Positions 3,689-39,211 of a DNA stretch of 64,000 nt are shown here, one piece after another. A program made the position numbers and the translations under genes. The first letter of the stretch is position 1. Each line of letters begins with the position of its first letter. The DNA is from Escherichia phage vB_EcoM_PHB13, in sequence record MK573636; one strand, written 5' to 3'. The notes under the pieces were generated by a model. It ran no database searches. It worked only from the letters and a program-made list of their open reading frames with translations, and was not told the DNA's origin.

Positions 3689-3717
3689 TTGACGCGGGGA
3701 GAAATCCCCGCTATAAT
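3689..3717 (+). promoter_or_regulatory. early sigma70-type promoter TTGACG-N17-TATAAT with spacer palindrome GCGGGGA-GAAA-TCCCCGC (PeSL-like)
   Basis: -35/-10 hexamers and inverted repeat read directly, immediately after nrdA stop. Confidence 0.6.
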
Positions 3718-9639: not shown

Positions 9640-10517
9640 TGCCGAAATGTGAAGTGATTTTAACCGTTGGTTGTTCTGGGTCCGGTAAAACTACATGGGC
9701 TATGGAAACGTGTAAACGGTTTAGTAATTATCGTAATGTGAATCGTGATGATCTTCGTCTTATGTTGTTTGGTGTTGACTCACCTTTGAAATACAAATAT
9801 ACTAAGGAAAAGGAAAAGCTGGTAGAGTCTATTCAGAGAATGATTGCTCGCGAGACTCTATCACGCGGATTAAGTATCATTATCTCTGATACTAACCTGA
9901 AAGAAAAACATCGTGTATTCTACAAAGAACTTGCAAAAGAATTTAACGCGGTGTATACTGAACAAGTGTTCAATGAATCATTTGAGACACTAAAGAAACG
10001 TAATTTCTATCGCGGCGAGAAAGCAATTCCACTTTCTCATTTGCGCAACCAATTTTATCTGATGCAGGAATATATGGGTCAAGAAGTATACAATCCGAAT
10101 ACCATGCTGCCGAAGGCAGTGATCTTTGATATTGATGGAACATTAGCGGATAAGGGCGGTCGTCATCCGTTTGACTGGACAAAGGTCAAAGAAGATAAAC
10201 CACGTCCGCAAGTGATCGAAATGCTTAAACTGTATCGTGATAATGGCTATCGTATCATTACATGCTCAGGGCGTGAGGATGTTTGCGAAGAAGATACTCT
10301 GCAATGGTTGCGTGAACAGGGTATTGAACCGAGTGATCACTTTCAACGTGAAACTAATGATCGTCGTCCTGATCATGAAGTGAAGAAAGAGATTTTCTTC
10401 TCTGAAATTGCACCGCGTTATCATGTTGTGTTGGCAGTAGATGATCGTGATCAAGTGGTTGACATGTACCGCTCAATTGGTGTAGAATGTTTTCAGGTTA
10501 ACTACGGAGACTTTTAA
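9639..10517 (+). CDS. pseT: polynucleotide 5'-kinase / 3'-phosphatase
   Basis: Colinear with T4 PseT: Walker A GCSGSGKTT, NRDDLR, phosphatase motif VIFDIDGTLA, C-terminal RSIGVECFQV. Confidence 0.9.
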   Translation: MPKCEVILTVGCSGSGKTTWAMETCKRFSNYRNVNRDDLRLMLFGVDSPLKYKYTKEKEKLVESIQRMIARETLSRGLSIIISDTNLKEKHRVFYKELAKEFNAVYTEQVFNESFETLKKRNFYRGEKAIPLSHLRNQFYLMQEYMGQEVYNPNTMLPKAVIFDIDGTLADKGGRHPFDWTKVKEDKPRPQVIEMLKLYRDNGYRIITCSGREDVCEEDTLQWLREQGIEPSDHFQRETNDRRPDHEVKKEIFFSEIAPRYHVVLAVDDRDQVVDMYRSIGVECFQVNYGDF

Positions 10518-12782: not shown

Positions 12783-13251
12783 AATTGATATCTATGCGGG
12801 TGGACCTTATCCATCGGGTGAATTGAGTAATTTCAATAAAAGACCATTCCGTCTATTTGGTTGCGATATTAACAGCACAGAAGGATTTTTACAGGGGCTA
12901 AGATTTAAGAACCCTCAGAGACAAAGAGAAATCTTTTTGATGCATGGTGGCAAAGCAAAAAGAACCGGAAGAACTGAAAAGATTGAGAATCACATGTTAT
13001 ATTTTCAGGGTCGCCCGATTCATCGAATGAGTGAGCATTATTACAAACTGGTACATCTGGCATTTGTTACGATGGCACGGAATAACCCAGAATTTTGTAA
13101 AGCATTACTCTCGACCGGAAATAAGAAATTACGTCATAGTATAGGTGGAACTGATCCGTTAAAGACTATATTGACTGAATCGGAATTTTGTAGTATCCTC
13201 AATGATATTCGTGAACGTTTAACAAAACGAGGTGAAAATGTCAATTCTTAA
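12772..13251 (+). CDS. NADAR (YbiA/DUF1768)-like protein
   Basis: Motifs LSNFNKRPF, STEGFLQG, GKAKRTGR, LLSTGNKKLRHS match NADAR family signature from memory. Confidence 0.55.
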   Translation: MTSEIDIYAGGPYPSGELSNFNKRPFRLFGCDINSTEGFLQGLRFKNPQRQREIFLMHGGKAKRTGRTEKIENHMLYFQGRPIHRMSEHYYKLVHLAFVTMARNNPEFCKALLSTGNKKLRHSIGGTDPLKTILTESEFCSILNDIRERLTKRGENVNS

Positions 13252-14734
13252 TATCATTAATCAGCTTGCAGCAACAGACAAAACATCGCTGAAAGAAAAG
13301 ATCCTGAAAGAATCTGCAAGCAATGAAACGCTGAAAGAATGCTTTTATCTGGCATATTGCAAACAGGTTACGTTTGGCGTAAAGAAATACGATAAACCAT
13401 CGCGTTATTCGTCTGTATTGTCTTTATCCGGTGCATTACAGGTCTTTAAAAATAAACTTGCCACGCGTCAAGTAACTGGTAACGCAGCATTACAGCTAGT
13501 TACCGATACTCTGACTTGCTTGTCAGAAGATGATGCTAAAGTTGCAATGATGGTCCTGAATCGTGATCTGGAATGTGGTTGTTCCGCTACCACTGCAAAC
13601 AAGGTATGGAAGAAACTGATCCCCCAGCAACCGTGTCACCTTGCATCGTCATGTTCTGATAAGACTATTGCTAATATCAAGTATCCGGCGTATGCACAAC
13701 TTAAAAGCGATGGCGCTCGTGGTATGGCTGATATTGACGGGGAAACATTAGCAATCTATACCCGTTCAGGTAATACCTATCAGGGACTTGATGATTTGTT
13801 TGCGGTTTTAGAGCGTCTACGAGGCCGTGGAATTGTTCTAGATGGCGAATTGGTATATATGCCTACCCTTTCGCAAACACCAGCGCAGAACTTCGTTGAG
13901 AGCATTTATGATGGTACTCTGTCATGGATATTTGAAGAAGAGGAAATGCCATTAACGCCAGTAGCGGAAGCAGTAAAAGAATCCGTTGTTGCAGATCGTC
14001 AGACCGGAAATGGTATCCTCAACAAATCACTGAAAGGAACTATTCCAAAAGAAGAAGCCCAATGTATTGTTTACACTGTCTGGGATGTTATCGACCGTGA
14101 TGTGTATTACGGAAACGAGAAAGCAACGAAGCAATATAAAGATCGATTCGAAGAACTAAAACAGATTGTTGAAGAACTTAACGATCCTCGTGTTCAGATA
14201 ATCGAAAACACTGTAGTTAACAATATAGATGAAGCTCGCGAAGTATATCATCGCTATGTAAACATGGGCTTAGAAGGTATTATCCTTAAAAATTTACATG
14301 GTGTATTTGAAGATCGTCGCAGTAAAGATCAGGTTAAATTTAAAGAAGTGATTGACTTCGACGCGGAAATTGTTGATGTATATCCGCATAGTAAAGACCC
14401 TAATAAGGTAGGCGGTTTTACTGTCCGTAGTGCGTGCGGACGAATGATGACTAACACCGGATCGGGATTGACTGACACCACAACCGAAAAAGGTGATGAT
14501 GGTATTGAACGTGTAATTCCGTTCGATCGTCGAAATGAACTCGACCGAGAAATGTTATGGGCTGACCGTCATAACCTGATTGGAAAAGTCATTGAGATGA
14601 CATGCAACGGGTATATCCGCAGCAAATCACGTAAAGAAGATGAACCGGAGTTCTCTTTATTTCTCCCGATCATCAAACGTATTCGCTACGACAAGACCAC
14701 TGCAAATACAGTAAAAGAGGTATTCGATGTGTGA
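13232..14734 (+). CDS. gp30: ATP-dependent DNA ligase
   Basis: 500 aa; colinear with T4 gp30 incl. RDLECG and adenylylation motif KSDGARG. Confidence 0.9.
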   Translation: MKMSILNIINQLAATDKTSLKEKILKESASNETLKECFYLAYCKQVTFGVKKYDKPSRYSSVLSLSGALQVFKNKLATRQVTGNAALQLVTDTLTCLSEDDAKVAMMVLNRDLECGCSATTANKVWKKLIPQQPCHLASSCSDKTIANIKYPAYAQLKSDGARGMADIDGETLAIYTRSGNTYQGLDDLFAVLERLRGRGIVLDGELVYMPTLSQTPAQNFVESIYDGTLSWIFEEEEMPLTPVAEAVKESVVADRQTGNGILNKSLKGTIPKEEAQCIVYTVWDVIDRDVYYGNEKATKQYKDRFEELKQIVEELNDPRVQIIENTVVNNIDEAREVYHRYVNMGLEGIILKNLHGVFEDRRSKDQVKFKEVIDFDAEIVDVYPHSKDPNKVGGFTVRSACGRMMTNTGSGLTDTTTEKGDDGIERVIPFDRRNELDREMLWADRHNLIGKVIEMTCNGYIRSKSRKEDEPEFSLFLPIIKRIRYDKTTANTVKEVFDV

Positions 14735-15200
14735 TAATGAAGGGGCGAAAGCCCCTAAACCTAAAAAATTGTCAAAGAAAGAGCAACGCCAGATCCTGAA
14801 AATGAAATATGGTGGACGTTGTGCCTATTGTGGCGAGGAACTAGGGGATCGCTGGCACGCAGACCACATCAAACCAGTATTGCGACGCTCAAAGGTAGTC
14901 TATGATGAAAATGGACGAATTGCCCGTAATGATGATGGATCGTGGAAGTATAAGGTTGTAGGAATGCATAAACCGGAACATGATATACTTGATAACATGA
15001 ATCCGGCGTGTGTGCAATGCAATCTTTATAAAAGCTGTATGGGCTTAGAATACTGGCGTAAGTTTATACGCGAGAACTTCCAGAAGTACATTCAGCGAAA
15101 TATGGGGTTGCGAGCGGCTAAACGCTTTGGCTTGCTGTCAATTCATGACCAGCCAGTAGAATTTTATTTCGAAAAGTACGAGCGCGAAAATAAGGAGTAA
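14727..15200 (+). CDS. HNH endonuclease (zinc-finger type)
   Basis: CAYCGEE...HADHIKP...NPACVQCN HNH signature; hairpin GGGGCGAAAGCCCC sits in first codons so true start may be Met26 (14802). Confidence 0.6.
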   Translation: MCDNEGAKAPKPKKLSKKEQRQILKMKYGGRCAYCGEELGDRWHADHIKPVLRRSKVVYDENGRIARNDDGSWKYKVVGMHKPEHDILDNMNPACVQCNLYKSCMGLEYWRKFIRENFQKYIQRNMGLRAAKRFGLLSIHDQPVEFYFEKYERENKE

Positions 15201-15207
15201 CCATTAT

Positions 15208-15552
15208 ATGTTCTTTATGTTTATCTATATCCTTTTTGTTTTCCTGGTAGGCATGTACGCAAGCCGTTTAAACCGTAGCGTTATCGGTTATGTTCTCCTA
15301 TCTTTGATCATTAGCCCGTTGATCACCTTTATCATTTTGTTGGTGTTGGGTCCAACTAAATCATATGAACAGGAACAAGCAGACAAGCTAAAAGCAGAGA
15401 TGGTAGAGAAACAATTTGTTCAACTGTATCTAGAAAACCCAGAGTTTGAGGAAGTTTCCACCCTTAAGCGAATGTATGACGATCTAACACGATACCCTAA
15501 CTATCGAAATGTGCTGGCTATGGAAGAAGCCATTAAGCTCATGAAAAAATAA
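15208..15552 (+). CDS. small membrane protein (2 predicted TM helices)
   Basis: Hydrophobic segments FIYILFVFLVGMYA and VLLSLIISPLITFIILLVLG. Confidence 0.5.
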   Translation: MFFMFIYILFVFLVGMYASRLNRSVIGYVLLSLIISPLITFIILLVLGPTKSYEQEQADKLKAEMVEKQFVQLYLENPEFEEVSTLKRMYDDLTRYPNYRNVLAMEEAIKLMKK

Positions 15553-15565
15553 TTCAAAAAAGTTG

Positions 15566-15594
15566 TTGACAGGGGATCACGTATCCCCTATACT
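15566..15594 (+). promoter_or_regulatory. PeSL early promoter TTGACA-GGGGATCACGTATCCCC-TATACT
   Basis: 17-nt spacer is a perfect palindrome. Confidence 0.65.
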
Positions 15595-15637
15595 ACACAC
15601 ATCAAAACGAAACACACTTTCTTAAGGAGAATCAAAA

Positions 15638-15949
15638 ATGAAATACATCGTAACGCTGCCAATGATTGACTTCGACGGAACCATGAACACCCAGAAGACC
15701 ATGAGCGCGGAGAACCAACTGAAAAACGCTACCCTGATTCGTGAAGTTCGCAAGGCACTGGCAAAAGAATTTAACACCAAAATTCATTCTGTAACTGGCG
15801 AACGTTTCGCGGATCATCTTGATATCAATATCAAACCAGTGCGCAACGGTGTTATCTCTGTAACAACCAACCGCCCACATGCTGACGCTGATAATCTGAC
15901 CGCTCGCGCAGAAGATGTAATTATGACCGTTATCATGGAAAAACTTTAA
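15638..15949 (+). CDS. hypothetical early protein (103 aa)
   Basis: ORF with PeSL SD AAGGAGAATCAAAAATG. Confidence 0.55.
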   Translation: MKYIVTLPMIDFDGTMNTQKTMSAENQLKNATLIREVRKALAKEFNTKIHSVTGERFADHLDINIKPVRNGVISVTTNRPHADADNLTARAEDVIMTVIMEKL

Positions 15950-15958
15950 AAAAAGTTG

Positions 15959-15988
15959 TTGACAGGGGAGGTTAAACTCCCCTATAAT
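15959..15988 (+). promoter_or_regulatory. PeSL early promoter TTGACA-N18-TATAAT (GGGGAG/CTCCCC stem)
   Basis: Direct reading. Confidence 0.65.
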
Positions 15989-16022
15989 ACACACATACCG
16001 AAACGAACTAGGAGAATCAATT

Positions 16023-16202
16023 ATGAACTTCAACGAAATCATCGCTAAAATCCGCTACAACGAAGAAACCATTGAACTGATGCAAAACAATATCACCAAT
16101 GGATATATGATTGCAGCGTCACAAGAAATCATTGATTTGACGGTAGCAGAAAATGCTCAGTTGAAACATCAACTTTCAACGGCTGGCGTGATTGTTATGT
16201 AA
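16023..16202 (+). CDS. small hypothetical protein (59 aa)
   Basis: ORF below track cutoff after PeSL SD. Confidence 0.4.
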   Translation: MNFNEIIAKIRYNEETIELMQNNITNGYMIAASQEIIDLTVAENAQLKHQLSTAGVIVM

Positions 16203-16219
16203 TAAAGAGAGGTGACTAA

Positions 16220-16522
16220 ATGGCAAAAGTTCAGGTAGGTGAGGTCTTCAAAATGGAAGACCATACCGTGGAAGAGATGAAAGGCGCAGTATTGAAAGTA
16301 ATTAATTCAATGTGGCGTAGTGTGCTTTACATCAACTTTATCGACGGTGATGTGTGGTGGGCTAGCGATAGCGATAAATGGGATATCAAGTTCTACAAAG
16401 GTCATACTCACTGGTTAGGATCAGAGGATGTTGTAGAAGTTCTGGCGGTTGATGTTATGCCAGGAGAGATCGAGAATCTTAGCGGAACAGCAAAAGAAGC
16501 ATTGACACGCCATTTTGCGTAA
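16220..16522 (+). CDS. HxHW/VLAVDV paralog family member A
   Basis: GHTHW then VLAVDV; SD AGAGAGGTGA. Confidence 0.55.
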   Translation: MAKVQVGEVFKMEDHTVEEMKGAVLKVINSMWRSVLYINFIDGDVWWASDSDKWDIKFYKGHTHWLGSEDVVEVLAVDVMPGEIENLSGTAKEALTRHFA

Positions 16523-16578
16523 TGTAGTATAACAATAATCGGGAGGGTAATACTCTCCCACAAATTGAGGATAATATT

Positions 16579-16770
16579 ATGTGTGGTCTTAAAATGGTTG
16601 CTGAATATAAGCGAACTGGTAATGTTATGATGTATCGACGCAATGCCAACGAAGAATGGAAACCTTCAAACCGCATTAAATCCATCCAGACGTTTATGAA
16701 TAACATCAAAGAAAACCTTTTCGTTAAGCGTGCTGGTGCTGGACATTGGGAAGTTTACGAAGCTGTATAA
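16579..16770 (+). CDS. hypothetical early protein (63 aa)
   Basis: ORF with SD GAGGATAA. Confidence 0.45.
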   Translation: MCGLKMVAEYKRTGNVMMYRRNANEEWKPSNRIKSIQTFMNNIKENLFVKRAGAGHWEVYEAV

Positions 16771-16786
16771 TTTTGAGGAAAATATT

Positions 16787-17095
16787 ATGGAACAAACTAA
16801 GCTATTTGTCGCGGAACCTTTTGTAAGAGACAATAAAAATCTGGCTAAAACAATCATTTTGTATTCGGATTGGATCTTTTATATCGATGGTAATTTAGAC
16901 GTATATTGTCGCACAGCTCCAACTGATTCGTTTTATATCGAAGAAAACGACACTCATAATCATTGGTATGATGGAAACGACAAAACCGAACTAGCTGTTG
17001 TCCTAGCGTCAGACGTAGAACCTGAAAACGCGGACAAAGTAGCAGACAAATTTATGAAGTACGCATATAAAGATAAAAATGAAGATGAAGAATAA
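16787..17095 (+). CDS. HxHW/VLAVDV paralog family member B
   Basis: THNHW then VVLASDV; start moved from track 16730 to Met after SD GAGGAA. Confidence 0.5.
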   Translation: MEQTKLFVAEPFVRDNKNLAKTIILYSDWIFYIDGNLDVYCRTAPTDSFYIEENDTHNHWYDGNDKTELAVVLASDVEPENADKVADKFMKYAYKDKNEDEE

Positions 17096-17102
17096 AAAGT
17101 TG

Positions 17103-17131
17103 TTGACAGGGGATCACCGATCCCCTATAAT
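17103..17131 (+). promoter_or_regulatory. PeSL early promoter TTGACA-GGGGATCACCGATCCCC-TATAAT
   Basis: Perfect palindromic spacer. Confidence 0.65.
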
Positions 17132-17165
17132 ACACACATACCAACGAGATATAGGAGAATCAAAA

Positions 17166-17333
17166 ATGTTCCAGACTAAAGCAGAATGCGAAGCATACAT
17201 TGTAGCAAACCACGGTGAAGACTACCTGAAATTCGATATCGTAGTAGCACAGAAGATCACCGGAATGGTTGCAAAATATCTGGGTGTTAAAGAAGGTTAC
17301 TATCCTAGCAACGCACCAGAAATTAACAAATAA
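17166..17333 (+). CDS. small protein (55 aa), duplicate copy 1 (MFQTKAECEAY...)
   Basis: Track start 17079 spans the promoter and is rejected; paralog of 20424-20591. Confidence 0.5.
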   Translation: MFQTKAECEAYIVANHGEDYLKFDIVVAQKITGMVAKYLGVKEGYYPSNAPEINK

Positions 17334-17336
17334 TAG

Positions 17337-17365
17337 TTGACAATGATTAAAGGGAGTAGTAAGAT
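17337..17365 (+). promoter_or_regulatory. PeSL early promoter TTGACA-N17-TAAGAT (GGGAGTA/TACTCCC stem)
   Basis: Direct reading. Confidence 0.6.
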
Positions 17366-17397
17366 ACTCCCATCAAGACAACAAACGGAGAATCAAA

Positions 17398-17577
17398 ATG
17401 AAAGCTATCGAAGTTCAGAAGTACATGGAAATCATCGTTGAAAGTAAAGCACATTTAGTGTTGACTACTCACGTAGGATATGATAAAAATGTGCATATGC
17501 TGGTAGACAACATCGGCTGGATGAAGTTTAATCCTAACGAGAACGTACAAGCTCAAGAAATGACCATCCCTTTCTAA
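17398..17577 (+). CDS. small hypothetical protein (59 aa)
   Basis: ORF below track cutoff after PeSL SD. Confidence 0.4.
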   Translation: MKAIEVQKYMEIIVESKAHLVLTTHVGYDKNVHMLVDNIGWMKFNPNENVQAQEMTIPF

Positions 17578-17589
17578 GAGGAATATATT

Positions 17590-17868
17590 ATGATGCGAAT
17601 TACTGCAACGCTGGATAAGACACACAAAGAAAGATTTTTCGGTATGATCTTAAAAACGCCGATTTTCGATAATTACCTTTATGTTGACTATAACGGTCAC
17701 ATTAGCTATAAATGTAAAAATGATATTCGTGATTCCTTTGGTGATAAATCACAAGCCGATATTCACGATCATTGGTGGAACCATGACGAACCTTTACGGG
17801 TTATCGCAGTTGATGTAAAAACAACAAAAGAAGCTGATAAGGTAGTGAATGATTATGAGCAAATTTAA
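17590..17868 (+). CDS. HxHW/VLAVDV paralog family member C
   Basis: IHDHWW then VIAVDV. Confidence 0.5.
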   Translation: MMRITATLDKTHKERFFGMILKTPIFDNYLYVDYNGHISYKCKNDIRDSFGDKSQADIHDHWWNHDEPLRVIAVDVKTTKEADKVVNDYEQI

Positions 17869-18064
17869 AGATTATAAAGCATATCAACAGATCTTGCGAG
17901 TATACGAACCAGAGTTCGCCGAAAAGATGATGGAAGATGCATCAAAATGCCCGTCCTTTTCTGGAAACAAAAACCATTATTCTACTGGTATTGTATCATG
18001 GAAAGAAACCGCATATACTCAACAATGGATAGATGTGTTTTCAAAAACTCTTGATTGGTGTTAA
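17849..18064 (+). CDS. small protein, MSKFKDY tandem paralog 1
   Basis: N-terminus MSKFKDYKAY; MMEDA motif shared with next ORF. Confidence 0.45.
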   Translation: MIMSKFKDYKAYQQILRVYEPEFAEKMMEDASKCPSFSGNKNHYSTGIVSWKETAYTQQWIDVFSKTLDWC

Positions 18065-18282
18065 TTATGAGTAAATTTAAAGATTATCGAGCATATAAAG
18101 CGATCTGCGATATATTCGATGAAAAGACCGCTCATGCAATGATGGAAGATGCAGAACAATATGAATCATTCGTCAATTCCAAAGATTGCACAGTAAACGA
18201 GGTTGTGTGCTGGAAAGATACAAAGTATGAAGAAAAATGGATTACTGTGTATTACGGAGAACTAGAATATGAAATTAACTAA
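18055..18282 (+). CDS. small protein, MSKFKDY tandem paralog 2
   Basis: N-terminus MSKFKDYRAY; MMEDAEQ; start possibly at internal Met 18067. Confidence 0.45.
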   Translation: MVLIMSKFKDYRAYKAICDIFDEKTAHAMMEDAEQYESFVNSKDCTVNEVVCWKDTKYEEKWITVYYGELEYEIN

Positions 18283-18589
18283 AAAGATTTTCCCAGAATT
18301 GCGTAACTGTCTGTTACTGGTTACTGAATATAAACCTTATACGATCTACTTGTATGTTGATGAAAATCTGAAAATCCGTTACTATGATTATACGTCTCCA
18401 GTAATGAGATCATTTGCTCACGCGATAGCAAACAATTGTATGAATCATAATCATTGGGTAAGTGATAATGATCATGATGCGTCAGAAGTTGTAGTGATCG
18501 CATGGAATCTATCACCAGCGGAAGCAGATCAAGCACGCATTAAGCATTATGCGAAAAACAATTGGTTTGACCTTATAAGTGAGGACTAA
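18269..18589 (+). CDS. HxHW/VLAVDV paralog family member D
   Basis: NHNHW then VVVIAWNL. Confidence 0.5.
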   Translation: MKLTKKIFPELRNCLLLVTEYKPYTIYLYVDENLKIRYYDYTSPVMRSFAHAIANNCMNHNHWVSDNDHDASEVVVIAWNLSPAEADQARIKHYAKNNWFDLISED

Positions 18590-18593
18590 TATT

Positions 18594-18872
18594 ATGTTCA
18601 AAGTAGGTGATAAGTTTATTCTTAGTCGTGATATTCTCCCTAATCTGAAAGGTTGTATCATCAATCCTAGTAAAAATTCATGGTTTTATCTGTTTATCGA
18701 CGACAAACTGAATGTACGCGCCGAATATAAAGAAGGTCTTCGTACTGGTCTAGGTTTCTTTCACGATCATGATCATAGCCATTGGCTAAACGGTGGATTC
18801 GAAGCAACGGTGCTAGCGGTTGATGTGACTTACACGAACATCATAGAAAAATATCAAAAAATTATTTTATAA
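18594..18872 (+). CDS. HxHW/VLAVDV paralog family member E
   Basis: HDHDHSHW then VLAVDV; start placed at ATG after SD GAGGACT. Confidence 0.5.
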   Translation: MFKVGDKFILSRDILPNLKGCIINPSKNSWFYLFIDDKLNVRAEYKEGLRTGLGFFHDHDHSHWLNGGFEATVLAVDVTYTNIIEKYQKIIL

Positions 18873-18878
18873 AAAGTG

Positions 18879-18907
18879 TTGACATAAGATCGGGTGTATA
18901 GCATAAT
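18879..18907 (+). promoter_or_regulatory. PeSL early promoter TTGACA-N17-CATAAT (GGGTGTAT/ATACACCC stem)
   Basis: Direct reading. Confidence 0.6.
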
Positions 18908-18953
18908 ACACCCATCGAAACGAGATACACTTTCTAACTAGGAGAATCAAATT

Positions 18954-19241
18954 ATGGCATACATCACTATCACTCTGAAAGTTAACAAATTTGCTCACGC
19001 TGCACACGAAACCGATAATGCAATCCGTAACAACAAGTTTGCACGTCTGGTACGCGATGCAGTAGCTAAAGAGTTCAACTTCAAATTTGCAGATGGTAAA
19101 GTTATCACTAAATGGACTCATGACGGCGAAACTAAAGTAGAACTTGCTGACAACTTCGCAAATCAGGAATATGCACACCGCCGCATCAATGAAATCATCA
19201 GCGATGAACTCTACTACGGAGTACAGGAAGGTTTGTTTTAA
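18954..19241 (+). CDS. hypothetical early protein (95 aa)
   Basis: ORF after PeSL SD; weak AKEFN similarity to 15638 ORF. Confidence 0.5.
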   Translation: MAYITITLKVNKFAHAAHETDNAIRNNKFARLVRDAVAKEFNFKFADGKVITKWTHDGETKVELADNFANQEYAHRRINEIISDELYYGVQEGLF

Positions 19242-19246
19242 TATAG

Positions 19247-19268
19247 GGGGCGTTAAGCCCCTTTTAAT
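19247..19268 (+). terminator. rho-independent terminator (GGGGC-GTTAA-GCCCC + TTTT)
   Basis: Read directly. Confidence 0.65.
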
Positions 19269-19290
19269 CTATCTGAATGAGGATATCACT

Positions 19291-19599
19291 ATGAAAAATC
19301 TTGTAGTTGAATTTACCCGCGAGAATTTACCACAATTTCGCAATTCTCTGCTTAAACTAGAGAACAGTAATTATGATGTATATTTTTACATCACCGAAGA
19401 TCTAGAGATCCTTTACGCTGATTACCCAGGTCCGATCCGTACCTTCGAAACCGCATCAAAATATAAAAATGTGCACGGTCATGAGCACTGGTTACGAGAA
19501 AACCCAGGTCGCAAGAAAGCACGCGTTAAAGTGTTGGCGATTGACATAACACCAGCATACGCCGACCGGATTGCACAGAATGATTATTTGTCTAAATGA
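19291..19599 (+). CDS. HxHW/VLAVDV paralog family member F
   Basis: HGHEHW then VLAIDI; start moved from track 19144 to Met after terminator and SD GAGGATA. Confidence 0.5.
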   Translation: MKNLVVEFTRENLPQFRNSLLKLENSNYDVYFYITEDLEILYADYPGPIRTFETASKYKNVHGHEHWLRENPGRKKARVKVLAIDITPAYADRIAQNDYLSK

Positions 19600-19606
19600 T
19601 TTCATT

Positions 19607-19633
19607 AGCCGACCTTAGTGTCGGCTTTTTTAT
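19607..19633 (+). terminator. rho-independent terminator (AGCCGAC-loop-GTCGGCT + T6)
   Basis: Read directly. Confidence 0.75.
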
Positions 19634-19657
19634 TGCATAAAATTTAAAAAAAAGGCA

Positions 19658-19686
19658 TTGACACCAGATCACGCCTATAGCATAAT
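19658..19686 (+). promoter_or_regulatory. PeSL early promoter TTGACA-N17-CATAAT
   Basis: Direct reading. Confidence 0.6.
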
Positions 19687-19726
19687 ACACCCATCGAAAC
19701 GAGATACCACTTAGGAGAATCAAACA

Positions 19727-19996
19727 ATGGCGCTGACTAAAACCACTACCAACTTTGCAAAACGTCACGGCTTCGACCTTGAAATCAATAGCTTTAACGA
19801 TTACACCCTTCTGTGTGTATATGAAATCGAAAATGATTGCGAGTGGATGTTCAGCTATCGCGTAAACGAAGACGGATCTTTCACTTGGAACGGAAATATC
19901 TATCTTGCACAGGAAGTAAAAGAAGAACTTCCGGCGACTATCAAAGATGAGAAACATTTACGTCAAGTTTTAAAATTTATTTCTGAAAATATCTAA
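19727..19996 (+). CDS. hypothetical early protein (89 aa)
   Basis: ORF after PeSL SD. Confidence 0.5.
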   Translation: MALTKTTTNFAKRHGFDLEINSFNDYTLLCVYEIENDCEWMFSYRVNEDGSFTWNGNIYLAQEVKEELPATIKDEKHLRQVLKFISENI

Positions 19997-20003
19997 AAAG
20001 TTG

Positions 20004-20032
20004 TTGACACCAAAGTAAGAACATAGCATAAT
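20004..20032 (+). promoter_or_regulatory. PeSL early promoter TTGACA-N17-CATAAT
   Basis: Direct reading. Confidence 0.6.
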
Positions 20033-20065
20033 ACACCCATACCGAAACGAACTGGAGAATCAAAA

Positions 20066-20347
20066 ATGAAATTCATCAAAGCAACCGAAATCCTGAAAAA
20101 CAAAGAAGCATACATCGGAAACATCGTTGGTATGAACATTCGCGGCGCTGGTAGCCAGTGGACCAAACTGGTTGATGTTAAAGCTAAAGGCGATAAAATT
20201 GAGTTCACTGTAAAAATGCTTACTCATAACGCACATATGGGTATCAAGACAAAAACGATGGCAGCAGATAAAAGCATCAACTATCAGGATCTGGGTGATT
20301 GGCTGAACTGGTGCAAAATGCACAACATCGAAACTAATCACGAATAA
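20066..20347 (+). CDS. hypothetical early protein (93 aa)
   Basis: ORF after PeSL SD. Confidence 0.5.
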   Translation: MKFIKATEILKNKEAYIGNIVGMNIRGAGSQWTKLVDVKAKGDKIEFTVKMLTHNAHMGIKTKTMAADKSINYQDLGDWLNWCKMHNIETNHE

Positions 20348-20361
20348 TTTTAAAAAAGTTG

Positions 20362-20390
20362 TTGACGGGGATCGGGAGATCCCCTATAAT
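20362..20390 (+). promoter_or_regulatory. PeSL early promoter TTGACG-GGGATCGGGAGATCCCC-TATAAT
   Basis: Direct reading. Confidence 0.65.
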
Positions 20391-20423
20391 ACACACATAC
20401 CGAAACGAAATAGGAGAATCAAA

Positions 20424-20591
20424 ATGTTCGAGACTAAAGCAGCATGTGAAGCATATATCATTGAAACCCACGGCGAAGATTATCTGAAATTTGACATTGT
20501 AGTAGCACAGAAGATTGTAGGGATGGTTGCGAAATACCTCGGAGTTAAAGAAGGTTACTATCCAAGCAACGCACCGGAAATTAACAAATAA
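20424..20591 (+). CDS. small protein (55 aa), duplicate copy 2 (MFETKAACEAY...)
   Basis: ~85% nt identity by eye to 17166-17333; identical C-terminus GVKEGYYPSNAPEINK. Confidence 0.5.
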   Translation: MFETKAACEAYIIETHGEDYLKFDIVVAQKIVGMVAKYLGVKEGYYPSNAPEINK

Positions 20592-20606
20592 TTTTTATAA
20601 AAAGTG

Positions 20607-20635
20607 TTGACAGGGGAGACACCCTCCCCTATAAT
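20607..20635 (+). promoter_or_regulatory. PeSL early promoter TTGACA-GGGGAGACACCCTCCCC-TATAAT driving the 20676-22731 operon
   Basis: Direct reading. Confidence 0.65.
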
Positions 20636-20675
20636 ACAACCATCAAGACGAGATACCACTTAGGAGAATCAAACA

Positions 20676-20927
20676 ATGGCTAACATCGAAACCGCAAAGA
20701 AAATCGCTAAAGACCTGAACGTTAAAGGCTTCCGTAAACTGAAATTACAGCGTGTACGCTACACCATCGGCAAACAGTGCTCTTTCATGAGCGAAGAAGT
20801 TGCTAACAGCCTCATTGATAACCTGATTGCGGCTGGCTGGGAAGTTGCGGATCTGAAAACTTGCCGCGAACTGGCTAACAAAGGTCTTTTAGATTCTGTT
20901 ACTATAAAACCAATGGGGGCAGCGTGA
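20676..20927 (+). CDS. hypothetical protein (83 aa), first gene of operon
   Basis: ORF after PeSL SD; stop overlaps next start. Confidence 0.5.
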   Translation: MANIETAKKIAKDLNVKGFRKLKLQRVRYTIGKQCSFMSEEVANSLIDNLIAAGWEVADLKTCRELANKGLLDSVTIKPMGAA

Positions 20928-21169
20928 AAAGAAAATTAATTAAACGAAATAAGGAATTTTTGAATAACTGCATTAAGGTTGCTAATGGTTGGCCTTTGTT
21001 CCTCTTCCTTTATGATTGGTATTCTAAACAATCGGTAGAGGAAACACGACACTATAAGAAGATCAGAAAAGAATCATATACAAAACAAGGCCGCATTAAC
21101 GGACTTTACTTAATGTGGCACGGCAAAGAACCTTCTAAAATCTGTGTTGGATTAAAGGGGCGTATATGA
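20924..21169 (+). CDS. hypothetical basic protein (81 aa)
   Basis: ATGA-coupled to neighbours. Confidence 0.45.
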   Translation: MKRKLIKRNKEFLNNCIKVANGWPLFLFLYDWYSKQSVEETRHYKKIRKESYTKQGRINGLYLMWHGKEPSKICVGLKGRI

Positions 21170-21882
21170 AACAAAAATTAATATTCTGCAACTTTGACGG
21201 ATCGGGGATAATGGGGCTAGAATGGGCTAAAGCAGGTCATAAGGTGATCTGCTTTAATGCAGATGATGCCGACCACGGCACATACAAAAAGTATAATACC
21301 CGATTTGAACATCCAAACATTACATATGTAAACACATGGATTGATTTGGATTGGCTGGAAAGAGCAATGGACCTTGAATGGGGAAAACCAGATATTATCT
21401 TTGCATTCCCACCGTGCACCAATTTAGCTGTTAGTGGCGCTGCACACTTTGAACGAAAGAAACGAGAACAAGGACCATTAATTCAAGTTCATGATGTAAG
21501 GGCAGCTAAAATAACCGCTTATTTGGGCGAATGGTTAGAAGTTCCCTACATGATAGAGAATCCTGTAAGCGTTATCTCTAGCATGTGGCGTAAGCCTGAT
21601 TACATGTTCCACCCGTGGGAATATGGCGGTTATTTGCCGGAATATGATATACATCCTACGTTTCCTGAGTATATTGCCTCCCGTGATATGTACCCGAAAA
21701 AGACTTGCTTATGGACGGGACAAGGTTTTATAATGCCAGAAAAGAAACCTATACCGATTAATAAAGGGTACAGTAAACAGCATTCTAAGCTAGGCGGGAA
21801 AGGAACCAGAACAAAGACTATCAGGTCACTTACCCCGCGAGGATTCGCAAAGGCAGTATTTGAAGCCAATAAGGATCTATGA
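21166..21882 (+). CDS. compact C5-cytosine methyltransferase-fold protein (variant motifs PCT / ENP)
   Basis: Motif I FDGSGIMG, motif IV FPPCTNLAVSG, motif VI ENPVSV, motif IX RSLTPRGFAKAV; only 238 aa. Confidence 0.55.
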   Translation: MKQKLIFCNFDGSGIMGLEWAKAGHKVICFNADDADHGTYKKYNTRFEHPNITYVNTWIDLDWLERAMDLEWGKPDIIFAFPPCTNLAVSGAAHFERKKREQGPLIQVHDVRAAKITAYLGEWLEVPYMIENPVSVISSMWRKPDYMFHPWEYGGYLPEYDIHPTFPEYIASRDMYPKKTCLWTGQGFIMPEKKPIPINKGYSKQHSKLGGKGTRTKTIRSLTPRGFAKAVFEANKDL

Positions 21883-22211
21883 TGGGATTGTTTAAGTATT
21901 CGCTAACGTCAAATTACGATAAACAAGGTCATTGCATCAGTTGCCCTGATTGTCGTAGCCATAACATCGAAAGCAAGATCACCGATCATATTGATGGACT
22001 TTGGTCGCCAGCAAGCGAGATAGAATACTATTGCGCTGATTGTGGAATTGTAGTAGCATATTGGGCATACGGATCATATGATCCTTACTTCCAGATGGGA
22101 GAGCGTTCAATCCCTGCTCTTATCTGGAGAATTAAGAACAATATCCGCCATTCATGGGATGAGTTCTTAAAAGATATTGATTTACGTGATGATCCATTCA
22201 GGAGACTATAA
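21879..22211 (+). CDS. zinc-ribbon protein (two CxxC pairs)
   Basis: CISCPDC and CADCG cysteine pairs; coupled to flanking genes. Confidence 0.45.
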   Translation: MMGLFKYSLTSNYDKQGHCISCPDCRSHNIESKITDHIDGLWSPASEIEYYCADCGIVVAYWAYGSYDPYFQMGERSIPALIWRIKNNIRHSWDEFLKDIDLRDDPFRRL

Positions 22212-22212
22212 C

Positions 22213-22731
22213 ATGAACCGTTTGACGCCTAAACGCCGTTACTATACCAATACTAAAAACTTTGTCATCTCTGTTTATGAGGCGTGGTTAGAAGATGGCT
22301 ATATCAACATGAACCCAGATTACCAGCGTCCTTTGGTATGGGACACCGAAAACAAACGTATGTTTATCGAAAACCTGATTAATGATTTTCCGGTTGGTGC
22401 TATCGCAATGGCTAAGATTGATGATGGCTCTCGCTATGAGATCGAAATCGTGGACGGTAAACAGCGTTTAAACGCAATATTCTCCTTTATGAAAGATGAG
22501 TTTAGCATTGCTGGTAATGATGATTCTATGTTGTATTACAGTGATTTTACGCCAGCAGAAAAGCGACGTTTTCGCAATCTCGGACTACCCGCGATCATGA
22601 TGGAAGAGAGCACACGAGAAGATCGATTAGAATATTTCTACAAAACAAACTTTTTCGGTGTGCCTCAATCAGAAGATCATCGCCAGCATGTGATTGCATT
22701 ATTGCAAGATGAGCAATTAAAAAATAACTAA
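22213..22731 (+). CDS. DUF262 / ParB-like (DGQQR-motif) domain protein
   Basis: DYQRPLVWD and DGKQRL motifs; start placed at ATG after SD GGAGA (track 22177). Confidence 0.5.
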   Translation: MNRLTPKRRYYTNTKNFVISVYEAWLEDGYINMNPDYQRPLVWDTENKRMFIENLINDFPVGAIAMAKIDDGSRYEIEIVDGKQRLNAIFSFMKDEFSIAGNDDSMLYYSDFTPAEKRRFRNLGLPAIMMEESTREDRLEYFYKTNFFGVPQSEDHRQHVIALLQDEQLKNN

Positions 22732-22738
22732 AAAGTTG

Positions 22739-22768
22739 TTGACAGGGGGATCGGTGATCCCCTATAAT
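22739..22768 (+). promoter_or_regulatory. PeSL early promoter TTGACA-GGGGGATCGGTGATCCCC-TATAAT
   Basis: Direct reading. Confidence 0.65.
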
Positions 22769-22804
22769 GCAAACATACCGAAACGAACTACTAAGGAGTA
22801 TCAA

Positions 22805-23017
22805 ATGGCTAACATCGAAATCATCATTACCGACGTAACTTATGACCGCATTAACGAAATCGGTACTGCTTTGCTAGAAGATGGAACAACTCGCACCATC
22901 AACTACGCAGAATACGTTGAAATGCGCGGTTGTATTAAACGAGTAGGAAAATATATCCTGATTGAAAAAGACTATTCAGGATACACATTAGAGCAATTGC
23001 TCGATGGTGCATTATAA
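22805..23017 (+). CDS. hypothetical early protein (70 aa)
   Basis: Start after PeSL SD; track start 22736 spans promoter and is rejected. Confidence 0.5.
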   Translation: MANIEIIITDVTYDRINEIGTALLEDGTTRTINYAEYVEMRGCIKRVGKYILIEKDYSGYTLEQLLDGAL

Positions 23018-23023
23018 TAAATT

Positions 23024-23046
23024 GGGGCGTTAAGCCCCCTTTTCAT
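23024..23046 (+). terminator. rho-independent terminator (GGGGC-GTTAA-GCCCC + TTTT)
   Basis: Same hairpin family as 19247. Confidence 0.65.
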
Positions 23047-23084
23047 AAATATAGGTTTATAGGTTATCAACTAGAGGATATAAA

Positions 23085-25136
23085 ATGTTTAACTTAGAAA
23101 TCGACGATCTAATGATTGAATCTTTCGAGAAATGGCTGTTGACGGAAGAGGAAGAAAACTTTGGCAGTATTGCTCCGGTACAGTGCTTAAAGCCTAAGCA
23201 GAATCCTAAACAGCTTTTTGCAGTACAGACACGCGATAAAGATGTGATTGTCCGTCTTTGTAACTTCACCAACAAAACACCTAAAATCATTCGTATGGGT
23301 GACAAGACCGCACATGTTGTACTGTGCGAAATGAACAAAAGCGGTCGTATTGTACAGCTTAAAAATGGTCTAGGCGATAACCCGATTGCAGTTATGGCAA
23401 GTGCTTTTGATGTGGTTATGGAAACAGCCCGTAAAGCGCAATTAGACGCTGTTATGTTCCGTTTTAACGTATCCCGCATGAAAGGTAAGACCGAACTGGT
23501 TAAGCGCGTTATAGAGCGTTTGGTGCGTCGTACACCGAAGTTTGAAGTATTCCAGCAGGAAGTAATGACCAGCAAAAAGATCGCTTTAGTTGTTGTCAAG
23601 CGTCGAGGTATGGCGATTGATAAGATTAAAGGGATTAAACTTGATGAATCCTTGTTCACTAAAGTAGAAAGTGATTTAGGTGATCGCTGGGTATCTAAAG
23701 CTACTGGCGAATCTCTGACTAAAGATGAAGCATATGCGGCTAGTCTTGTGTCAGAAGAAGAACGAAACGCGGAAGCAGAACAACGCGTAGCGGCTAAATC
23801 TCGTTTGACTAAAGAAGAAATGCTGAAAACTCAAGCGACCTATAACAGCGACTATGTGAATCATCCAGAAAAAATTAATCTTAAACCGGAAGAAGATATC
23901 ACCGAAGCAGAACCTAAGAAACAGTTTAATACTCTGATTGACCGTCAAGCCTTAGAACGTTCAACCGCCCGTTCTCTGAATGACTGGACAAGTGATATTA
24001 TCACTCGCTATGGTTTCATGCGTACTATTTTTGAAAGCGAAGCCGATGCAAAATACGCAGTAAGCGAACTGGTAAAAGTTCAGGACCAATATGATCCGTT
24101 GTCTGCGGAAGTTATCGCAGCATCAATCAAACGCTTAAAAGAAATCATGAGCGAGGAAGTATTCGAAAACAAGATCACTGCGTTGGCAATGGATCGAGTA
24201 GACCAGTCTATGCCAGCAGATGTAAAAGCTGAAATGCTGCGTAGTCATATCACACAGATTAAAACCGATGCCCTTCGTAATGTTGCCTCCGGTATGTTTG
24301 AAGCAATTGCAAGTAACATGGGTGAAATGATGGCAGATATTGATCTTGACCTACCAGGCGCGGAAGGTTTTGTGTTGAGCGAATATGCGGATGCAGCATA
24401 CATCAATATGAACAACTTCCTAACCGATCGTAAGCTGGATGAGTTCGAAGGGATCGCTGACCCAGAAGAATTGGTCAAGATGTGCGACGCACTGGATAAT
24501 GCCTTCGCTAACTATGGCGTTAAACTTGATCCGGGTACTATTCTGTATCGTGGTATGGACTTCCGGTCTCAAATGTGGGAAACTGCACGTAAGCAAAAAG
24601 CGTTTTACTTTAAAAACTATGTGAGCACTTCCCTTGCACCTAACATTTTTGGCGGCTGGAATGCAAACGTGGCTAGTGCCGTTGCTGGTGTTGATTCTAT
24701 GGCTGGCTCTCGCGGTGAAGGTGGCGCGAATGTTGCTTTCTCCATTGCTGGCGCGGAAAACATCCCTGTATTGCCAGTAGGTAACAAAGCATTTGCTTAC
24801 AAAGAATGCGAGATTTTACTTCCTCGCGGTGTTGTGTTATCCTTTGATACGGTAACTCGTGCTACGGCATCGACGGATTCACAAGAAACATATTACATTG
24901 AGGCACATATTATGAACAAAAGTGAACTGGCAGCATTACAAGAATCTGGCGAAATGATCGCGGATGGTGATGCATTCATCCGTGAAGGTGTTGTTAAACC
25001 TGCTTCTGACCTGTCTTTCTCCAGATTCATTACAGAAGCTAAAACCGAACGTAAGAAAGCAGATAAGGCAACTCTACGTCAGCTTATCGCTGATCTGGTG
25101 TCTGTAGACGCAATGCCAGATAAATTTAAAATGTAA
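23085..25136 (+). CDS. alt: Alt-like ADP-ribosyltransferase (virion-packaged in T4)
   Basis: 683 aa; matches to T4 Alt (FTKVESDLGD, FYFKNYVSTSLAPNIFGGW) and R-S-E ART triad (YRG, STS, ECEILLPRG). Confidence 0.8.
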   Translation: MFNLEIDDLMIESFEKWLLTEEEENFGSIAPVQCLKPKQNPKQLFAVQTRDKDVIVRLCNFTNKTPKIIRMGDKTAHVVLCEMNKSGRIVQLKNGLGDNPIAVMASAFDVVMETARKAQLDAVMFRFNVSRMKGKTELVKRVIERLVRRTPKFEVFQQEVMTSKKIALVVVKRRGMAIDKIKGIKLDESLFTKVESDLGDRWVSKATGESLTKDEAYAASLVSEEERNAEAEQRVAAKSRLTKEEMLKTQATYNSDYVNHPEKINLKPEEDITEAEPKKQFNTLIDRQALERSTARSLNDWTSDIITRYGFMRTIFESEADAKYAVSELVKVQDQYDPLSAEVIAASIKRLKEIMSEEVFENKITALAMDRVDQSMPADVKAEMLRSHITQIKTDALRNVASGMFEAIASNMGEMMADIDLDLPGAEGFVLSEYADAAYINMNNFLTDRKLDEFEGIADPEELVKMCDALDNAFANYGVKLDPGTILYRGMDFRSQMWETARKQKAFYFKNYVSTSLAPNIFGGWNANVASAVAGVDSMAGSRGEGGANVAFSIAGAENIPVLPVGNKAFAYKECEILLPRGVVLSFDTVTRATASTDSQETYYIEAHIMNKSELAALQESGEMIADGDAFIREGVVKPASDLSFSRFITEAKTERKKADKATLRQLIADLVSVDAMPDKFKM

Positions 25137-38584: not shown

Positions 38585-38612
38585 TTGACAGAGCGATTTA
38601 GATGCCTATAAT
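38585..38612 (+). promoter_or_regulatory. sigma70-type promoter TTGACA-N16-TATAAT
   Basis: Direct reading. Confidence 0.55.
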
Positions 38613-38936: not shown

Positions 38937-39211
38937 TGGACAAGAAAACAGCGTTAATGGTTTACATGCTACGCGAAGACCACGGTCTTAATTTTGTTGA
39001 TATTGCTAAAAAGATTGGCGGGATCAGCGGACAAGATGCGGCTAAGGCATGGTTGATGGTAAAAGATGCACGCGAGGCTTACGCCAGCCGTGAAAAGGTT
39101 GTTTATCGTAAACACCACATCAACAAAAAATTTAAAAATAAAGTTCAAAAACGTGTTGACAAGCCAAATAACACTGTTATAATGGACGCATTCAAACGGG
39201 CAATGTCCTGA
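38936..39211 (+). CDS. small basic protein (91 aa)
   Basis: Start taken at MDKKTALMVY (GTGATGG overlap with previous stop) rather than track 38828. Confidence 0.4.
   Translation: MDKKTALMVYMLREDHGLNFVDIAKKIGGISGQDAAKAWLMVKDAREAYASREKVVYRKHHINKKFKNKVQKRVDKPNNTVIMDAFKRAMS
39155..39183 (+). promoter_or_regulatory. sigma70-type promoter TTGACA-N17-TATAAT inside 3' end of preceding ORF
   Basis: Direct reading. Confidence 0.5.

Follow-up and report, generated by a model that had tools for sequence, protein, structure and literature searches.

Promoter-early stem-loops (PeSLs) are motifs repeated between genes that were defined in the T4-type coliphages phi1 and RB49 (Arbiol et al. 2010, PMC2839356). 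As published, each combines an AT-rich region with an upstream stop codon, a consensus sigma-70 promoter, a polyG/polyC stem-loop, and the Shine-Dalgarno sequence (SD) and ATG of the downstream ORFan; the stem-loop occupies one of five positions relative to the promoter, and there are ~50 PeSLs per genome, mostly in hyperplastic regions (PMC2839356). We describe here an array of repeats of this build found between positions 15566 and 22768 of a 64,000-nt stretch (the window) of Escherichia phage vB_EcoM_PHB13 (sequence record MK573636). With a probability that we put at about 0.9, these repeats are PeSLs, i.e. the composite regulatory cassettes of RB49/phi1-type (Krischvirus) T4-like phages. 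This kind of element is already known, having been characterised experimentally in the orthologous region of sister phages, and the finding is a correct rediscovery.

Experiments in the orthologous region dealt with three of the published elements, PeSL211/210, PeSL206/205 and PeSL193/192 (PMC2839356). The phi1 PeSL206/205, ortholog of the window unit at 17103, displayed a promoter activity of ~13,000 Miller units; the stem-loop of PeSL211/210, ortholog of the unit at 15566, lowered expression of a lacZ reporter like rrnB T1; and inverse polymerase chain reaction in RB49/phi1 revealed mini-circles with ORF192/193, ORF191-194 and ORF210 (PMC2839356). The predicted RB49 early-promoter consensus agrees with 5'-end mapping (Nolan et al. 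2006, PMC1524935). The PeSLs of RB49, phi1 and JSE come from the same genus and the same gp30-alt region (HPR3 in RB49) as the PHB13 units; they fall into the same positional subclasses and share the same architecture (AT-rich stretch with stop codon, TTGACA-N17-TATAAT, stem-loop, SD and ATG). The PHB13 elements are orthologous to PeSL211/210, 206/205, 193/191 and others, the differences being at the allele level only. PeSLs were also described in T4/PST and KVP40/nt-1 (Comeau et al. 2014, PMC4122927). Like those of PHB13 they associate a promoter and a stem-loop in hyperplastic regions, near sister-phage indels, but they have other promoter consensus sequences (TTTACW...TAYWAT; TTGYVH...TAWWAT), and AT-richer stems located 5' of the promoter (PMC4122927). 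They have no sequence homology to the PHB13 type.

The window belongs to a Krischvirus, an RB49/phi1-like T4-type coliphage: it shares 94-96% identity with Krischvirus genomes, among them RB49, phi1 and GEC-3S, and a megablast search of 15400-23200 against 50,697 phage records returned 58 records at 90-99% identity, all from Krischvirus RB49/phi1-like coliphages. According to the annotated relatives, the interval is the hyperplastic region between gp30 (ligase) and alt, and it corresponds to open reading frames (ORFs) 212-185 of RB49 and phi1, with both of which the window aligns colinearly at 94-98%. Features named 'promoter', 'minus_35_signal' and 'minus_10_signal' are annotated at orthologous sites in the GEC-3S record. 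ORF211 is present in both PHB13 and RB49, whereas ORF192, ORF195/196 and ORF186 are absent from PHB13. The window copy of PeSL206/205 differs from that of phi1 by one -10 base, toward consensus (TATAAT in PHB13, TATACT in phi1 and GEC-3S). Judged from these alignments, the PHB13 cassettes are PeSL family members by orthology, not by resemblance alone, since they display the sequence-level defining features and lie in a colinear orthologous region. An earlier note, written from the letters of the window (hereafter the sequence-only reading), had likened the repeats to the PeSLs described for some T4-type phages as recombination sites for gene shuffling; this identification is supported, the locus being the orthologous region of RB49/phi1 in which PeSLs were defined and tested.

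The pattern TTGACA-N16-18-TANAAT matched the window 11 times, for an expectation of 0.38 and with fewer than 11 matches in each of 100 shuffles; only four of the 11 matches are inside 15.5-23 kb. When the threshold was set at 10 or more of 12 hexamer matches to the -35 and -10, exactly 11 cassettes were found on the + strand of the interval, which starts with the first -35 (15566) and stops at the end of the last -10 (22768). The 11 cassettes, designated below by the start of their -35 (Table 1), score 10 to 12 of 12, four of them being perfect, and have spacers of 17-18 nt. The 'at least 18 copies' that the sequence-only reading gave for the window is about right (17 clear cassettes plus 2-3 looser ones), and its 11 copies between 15.5 and 23 kb are recovered at the 10/12 threshold. 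Could these be chance sigma-70-like matches in AT-rich phage DNA? A low-stringency promoter scan of 14-24 kb was indeed barely above shuffles (38 versus 29.4 expected). However, the excess of high-stringency matches, the strict strand bias, the fixed distance to start codons, the strand distribution of the 10-mer SD GGAGAATCAA (12 copies on the + strand of the window, nine of them inside the interval, and none on the - strand) and the conservation of orthologous sites in 58 genomes led us to reject this explanation outright.

Each cassette is ~85-100 bp in size and separates two successive small early genes, lying between the stop codon of the first and the start codon of the second. The cassette layout is an AT-rich stretch, a near-consensus sigma-70 -35/-10 pair, a common leader, the GGAGAATCAA ribosome-binding site and the start codon. 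An A-rich run ending in (G)TTG, with the TAA of the upstream gene within ~25 nt, is found in nine of them; the exceptions are 16502, where the -35 is inside an ORF end, and 19658, where a terminator separates the upstream stop codon from the A-run. The SD is GGAGAATCAA in 9/11 cassettes, GGAGTATCAA in one and GAGGAT in one, and the ATG follows the GGAG(A/T)A or GAGGAT core by 5-8 nt. The leader was overstated in the sequence-only reading: a 'CGAAACGA'-like one is present in 6/11 cassettes only. Its statement that the elements bracket nearly every small gene was excessive: 11 of the 25 gene junctions carry a cassette, and ORFs 204-199 and 190-187 form multi-gene blocks without an internal one. 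An unbiased repeat finder gave the cassettes as the dominant direct-repeat families.

Further cassettes of like build lie at 3689, 5957, 6243, 6521, 6747 and 25154, each 60-75 nt 5' of an ORF with a ribosome-binding site. All cassettes are on the + strand and form two clusters (3.7-6.8 kb and 15.5-25.2 kb) amid small ORFs mostly without a Pfam family; the type was not found past 25.2 kb of the window, relatives having baseplate genes annotated from ~26.5 kb. There are also promoter-only sites at 10459, 38585 and 39156. The last two (38585-38612 and 39156-39183) are perfect 12/12 sigma-70 promoters on the + strand with 16-nt spacers, devoid of PeSL leader or SD, and separated from the next ORF by leaders of ~70-120 nt.

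A G-rich/C-rich hairpin is present in 9/11 cassettes, with a minimum free energy (MFE) of -10 to -16 kcal/mol and z-scores of -1.8 to -5.0. It is in the spacer in six (15566, 15959, 17103, 20362, 20607 and 22739); it overlaps the -10 in two (17337 and 18879) and is 3' of it in one (16502), which matches the published 'stem-loop downstream of -10' subclass. The three hairpin sub-families of the sequence-only reading, GGGGATC...GATCCCC, GGGAGTA...TACTCCC and a third, were all recovered, together with a fourth, GGGGAG...CTCCCC. Across 24 genomes there are 45 distinct hairpin sequences, and pairing is kept in all. At orthologous PeSL199/198 (the site of unit 18879), GGGTGTAT/ATACACCC is swapped for GGGGATAT/ATATCCCC, two adjacent pairs being changed on both sides, probably in a single event; there, the proportion of paired cells is 99%, versus 29-62% in slid controls.

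Classical intrinsic terminators were considered as an identity for the PeSL stems and rejected for lack of T-runs: the stems are followed by TATAAT/ACACAC, and none was called by the terminator scan, the only + strand calls of which were 19607-19632, 19245-19262 and 23024-23038. The last two, located after ORF198 and ORF185 respectively, are nearly the same, GGGG(G)CGTTAAGCCCC(T); this terminator-like hairpin is a second small repeated element, different from the stems of PeSLs. A known structured RNA or tRNA was discarded too, no Rfam match at the gathering threshold and no tRNA being found in the 64-kb window. As to a Dam/GATC idea, the ~3-fold GATC enrichment in promoter cores stems from one hairpin family, and GATC is high window-wide (370 versus 233 expected).

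In the GGGGATC family, the 3-nt loop at an orthologous locus in one genome can be the reverse complement of the loop found there in another (ACC/GGT and ACA/TGT; e.g. 17109-17125 and 22746-22762). Such pairs could result from hairpin-loop inversion at the DNA level, or from one old flip spread among PeSLs by recombination; a term search of Arbiol et al. 2010 (PMC2839356) found no mention of loop inversion. It is conceivable, though in our view unlikely, that the hairpins also act at the DNA level, through strand- or template-switch loop inversion, and are not just RNA attenuators. They would then be extruded in single-stranded or cruciform DNA during recombination-dependent replication, e.g. 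as the target of a structure-specific nuclease, and PeSLs would be active exchange initiators, more than passive homology patches. A flipping central loop would equally be expected of the non-contacted centre of an operator. The palindromes might indeed be operators for a dimeric DNA-binding protein (an early-promoter repressor, or a recombination factor for GGGG...CCCC) and not RNA hairpins: most lie precisely between the -35 and -10 hexamers, where repressors classically bind, the outer GGGG/CCCC hardly varies, and a DNA-binding protein was raised as a possibility by Arbiol et al. (PMC2839356). We judge this quite improbable, however. The stem has no constant position (it may be in the spacer, over the -10, downstream or upstream), the inner stem varies among at least four families with pairing kept, and no candidate repressor was identified. 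The commonest single mismatch of the core stem is a sense-strand G·T (6 of 17 imperfect variants versus one A·C, several of the six being probably one mutation spread by recombination), which might fit RNA-type pairing better than a symmetric protein site.

The ligase-alt regions of 23 relatives were compared with the window by means of chained blastn alignments, and events of at least 100 bp were counted. There were 14 distinct indel or replacement events, nine of which are bounded by PeSLs on both sides; a conserved gene order without repeat-bounded indels, which the sequence-only reading had named as part of the outcome that would contradict it, is thus not what the relatives display. Homology overlaps at the PeSL-bounded junctions range from 40 to 240 bp, and the junctions carry chimeric PeSLs, the crossover being in the AT-rich/-35 part for MIZ4 and PTE-Eco09, and between the -10 and the SD for JK32. 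PHB13 itself has one: the PeSL at 22739 is a chimera of the 5' half of RB49 PeSL187/186 and the 3' leader of RB49 PeSL186/185, with the crossover in CATACCGAAACGA and loss of ORF186. RB49, MIZ4, JK32 and Brandy have the ORF195/196 cassette inserted at unit 19658, and at 20362 the ORF192 cassette is present in RB49, G2494 and FL38. Our comparison revealed only the reciprocal deletion products, versus the published circular excision products.

Two of the deletions, 15566 x 15959 and 15566 x 17103, were read on a phi1-like background without ORF211; against the window itself, their left breakpoint (15187) falls in the HNH gene, at its 3' end. Three distinct deletions among the relatives have this breakpoint in common when aligned to the window. 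Two alleles of this end of the gene exist, of 474 and 477 nt: the phi1-type allele leads directly into a PeSL, and after the window allele comes ORF211, predicted to be a membrane protein.

The elements might be only strong early promoters, alike through selection for sigma-70 binding and translation, with incidental recombination and neither a mobile-cassette role nor an insertion pathway; we give this a minority chance, and its difference from the PeSL explanation is mostly one of emphasis. What speaks against it is first the enrichment of breakpoints at PeSL junctions over other gene junctions. Under a null model with breakpoints at random gene junctions (11/25 with a PeSL), two-junction deletions joined two PeSLs in 6/9 cases versus 0.18 expected (P=0.002), and junction matches fell on PeSLs in 17/23 cases versus 0.44 expected (P=0.004), values that treat events as independent in relatives chosen for diversity. 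Then, the mini-circles were detected experimentally (PMC2839356). Lastly, paralogous gene-plus-PeSL cassettes occupy two sites in one genome: ORF205/ORF191 (87% amino acid identity; 17166-17333 and 20424-20591) and ORF210/ORF198 (same PHROG, 7474; 15638-15949 and 18954-19241), each copy being directly behind a PeSL. These are the only signs of cassette duplication and they are intragenomic; Cognac lacks the 3020 bp between the ORF205 and ORF191 copies.

Besides the way in which these statistics were obtained, several facts weigh against the PeSL explanation, and some of them favour the promoters-only explanation. Three of the 14 events (the ORF189.1 deletion, +265 bp at 16220 and +172 bp at 22213) involve no PeSL at all, and two are one-sided, namely the ORF211 indel (GAAAA(A)TAA microhomology) and the ORF207 replacement in G37-3: one side of each has no PeSL and shows instead short homology at ribosome-binding sites or start codons. 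The PeSL-free events have 10-20 bp of similarity around such sites, e.g. GGGGC.G.TGAAA.AAAATTAAT, in the breakpoint stretches 20924-20945 versus 21160-21185 (ORF189.1), 16203-16222 and 22195-22216. Such short similarities provide a second route by which cassettes are lost or gained, independent of PeSLs. Polymorphic cassettes are at the same fixed position in every genome that has them, and no permutation to new positions was seen among the 23 relatives. Because of this constancy, loss, or gain at a fixed site, is documented but permutation is not; of the sequence-only reading's 'gained, lost or permuted', presence/absence stands and permutation does not. Deletion alone could explain the presence/absence patterns, and the comparison gives no support for cassette insertion or transposition; no recombinase was found in the region. 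Two units, 19658 and 20004, have no promoter-associated hairpin and keep only the 3' arm ATACACCC. Since the PeSL stems have no following T-run, the reduction of read-through is not explained by the classical terminator model. Finally, promoter and attenuator activity in PHB13 would be carried over, by analogy, from orthologs with one or a few base differences.

For PeSLs, the following mode of action is proposed. Host sigma-70 RNA polymerase would start early transcripts at each unit, as shown in the literature for an ortholog. The hairpin would be transcribed only on read-through RNA coming from upstream, where it would dampen read-through and so insulate neighbouring cassettes, one orthologous hairpin having been shown to do so in a reporter. 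The units also provide ~40-100 bp near-identical direct repeats at many junctions, between which the phage's very active homologous recombination may cross over. Such a crossover would delete the intervening genes, and the reverse reaction could bring in a gene together with its PeSL; what the present comparison directly reveals is deletion-type junctions and chimeric units. Integron attC cassettes are similar in that they are small, mostly single-gene units between repeated structured sites, for which a circular excised intermediate is proposed. Integrons have, however, a dedicated integrase, folded single-stranded attC sites and usually promoterless cassettes, whereas each PeSL unit has its own promoter, there is no integrase, and exchange apparently relies on general homologous recombination. 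The morons of lambdoid phages, reportedly described by Hendrix and coworkers in 2000, resemble PeSL units in being additional genes, equipped with a promoter and a terminator of their own, that are inserted between genes already present.

The modular theory of phage evolution proposes 'linker' sequences, for which there are few concrete candidates; PeSLs are among these, and would account for the gain and loss of small accessory genes in T4-type phages without damage to core genes. The present analysis widens the original two-genome comparison to 23 relatives and adds a measurable breakpoint enrichment at PeSLs, a sizeable minority of events through start-codon microhomology, more direct support for deletion than for insertion, the recombinant nature of the PeSL at 22739 and the reverse-complement loop pairs.

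Table 1. PeSL units of the interval, neighbouring genes (placed by annotated relatives) and PeSL-associated differences in relatives
Feature	Coordinates	Strand	Details
PeSL 1 (ortholog of PeSL211/210)	15545..15640	+	AT-rich 15545-15565; -35 15566-15571; hairpin GGGGATCACGTATCCCC 15572-15588, in spacer (MFE -10.1, z -2.7); -10 TATACT 15589-15594; SD 15626-15631; ATG 15638 (ORF210)
PeSL 2	15939..16025	+	-35 15959; hairpin GGGGAGGTTAAACTCCCC 15965-15982, in spacer (MFE -13.9, z -3.5); -10 TATAAT 15983-15988; SD 16011; ATG 16023 (ORF209)
PeSL 3	16502..16581	+	weakest (10/12 hexamer matches); -35 16502, inside ORF208 end; -10 TAGTAT 16525-16530; hairpin 16541-16559, 3' of -10 (z -2.4); differing SD GAGGAT; ATG 16579 (ORF207)
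PeSL 4 (ortholog of PeSL206/205)	17083..17168	+	-35 17103; hairpin GGGGATCACCGATCCCC 17109-17125, in spacer (z -4.1); -10 TATAAT 17126-17131; SD 17154; ATG 17166 (ORF205)
PeSL 5	17329..17400	+	-35 17337; hairpin GGGAGTAGTAAGATACTCCC 17352-17371, overlaps -10 (z -4.1); -10 TAAGAT 17360-17365; SD 17387; ATG 17398 (ORF204)
PeSL 6	18859..18956	+	-35 18879; hairpin GGGTGTATAGCATAATACACCC 18892-18913, overlaps -10 (z -5.0); -10 CATAAT 18902-18907; SD 18941; ATG 18954 (ORF198)
PeSL 7	19607..19729	+	canonical terminator hairpin + T-run 19607-19632, 5' of -35; -35 19658; promoter-internal stem degenerate; -10 CATAAT 19681-19686; SD 19714; ATG 19727 (ORF194)
PeSL 8	19984..20068	+	promoter-only; -35 20004; no hairpin (MFE 0); -10 CATAAT 20027-20032; SD 20054; ATG 20066 (ORF193)
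PeSL 9	20342..20426	+	-35 TTGACG 20362; hairpin GGGGATCGGGAGATCCCC 20367-20384, in spacer (z -2.8); -10 TATAAT 20385-20390; SD 20413; ATG 20424 (ORF191)
PeSL 10	20587..20678	+	-35 20607; hairpin GGGGAGACACCCTCCCC 20613-20629, in spacer (z -3.0); -10 TATAAT 20630-20635; SD 20663; ATG 20676 (ORF190)
PeSL 11	22719..22807	+	recombinant; -35 22739; hairpin 22746-22762, in spacer; -10 22763-22768; SD GGAGTATCAA 22795; ATG 22805 (ORF185)
ORF205 cassette body	17163..17334	+	direct repeat of ORF191 cassette (85% nt, 87% aa)
ORF191 cassette body	20421..20592	+	second copy of the ORF205/ORF191 repeat
gp30 DNA ligase	13232-14734		
HNH endonuclease gene	14727-15200		after gp30
alt	23085-25136		
Deletion	15566 x 15959		ORF210 lost; JK32, SFHK24, Brandy, Skers
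Deletion	15566 x 17103		ORF210-206 lost; G5211
Deletion	15959 x 17103		ORF209-206 lost; PTE-Eco09 (70-bp overlap)
Deletion	17103+ORF205 x 20362+ORF191		3020 bp lost; Cognac (238-bp overlap)
Deletion	20362 x 20607		ORF191 lost; JK32, Brandy (90-bp overlap)
Deletion	20362 x 22739		2306 bp lost; MIZ4 (75-bp overlap)
PeSL-flanked cassette in relatives, ORF195/196	19608-19705		98-bp overlap
PeSL-flanked cassette in relatives, ORF192	20343-20347		
PeSL-flanked cassette in relatives, ORF186	22764-22805		

Outside the genus, a BLAST search of a 91-nt PeSL against the 50,697 phage records matched only Krischvirus-like coliphages, plus one marginal case, Vibrio phage VF16 (LC811684.1, 5372-5431; 79% over 60 nt, E=4e-4). 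This match, in the left terminal repeat of a 122-kb phage, is probably a merely similar strong early promoter. An exact-pattern scan of IMG/VR returned two contigs, of 150 kb and 165 kb, by pattern match only.

Six small paralogous proteins are encoded in the interval, at 16220-16522, 16787-17095, 17590-17868, 18269-18589, 18594-18872 and 19291-19599. They are 92-106 amino acids long and ~22-36% identical, share an invariant H-x-H-W motif after which comes a V-x-A-x-D-like strand, and belong to PHROGs of unknown function. No Pfam family at gathering score and no PDB sequence match were found for them, and an AlphaFold model (predicted local distance difference test, pLDDT, 77.5; five strands and two C-terminal helices) gave no significant Foldseek match in PDB. 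Another paralogous pair, ORF202/201 (41% amino acid identity), is in tandem at 17849-18064 and 18067-18282. The PeSL-free block at 21166-22731 encodes three proteins of 238, 110 and 172 amino acids. The first has C5-methyltransferase-like motifs (FPPC, ENP), is annotated as a DNA methyltransferase in relatives, and gave a weak PADLOC MTase_II match and no Pfam match; the second is zinc-ribbon-like; the third consists mostly of a GmrSD_N/DUF262 domain (Pfam 4e-20; PADLOC NsnA 1e-20). From these similarities, the phage may carry in this block a modification module, or one with a nuclease domain.

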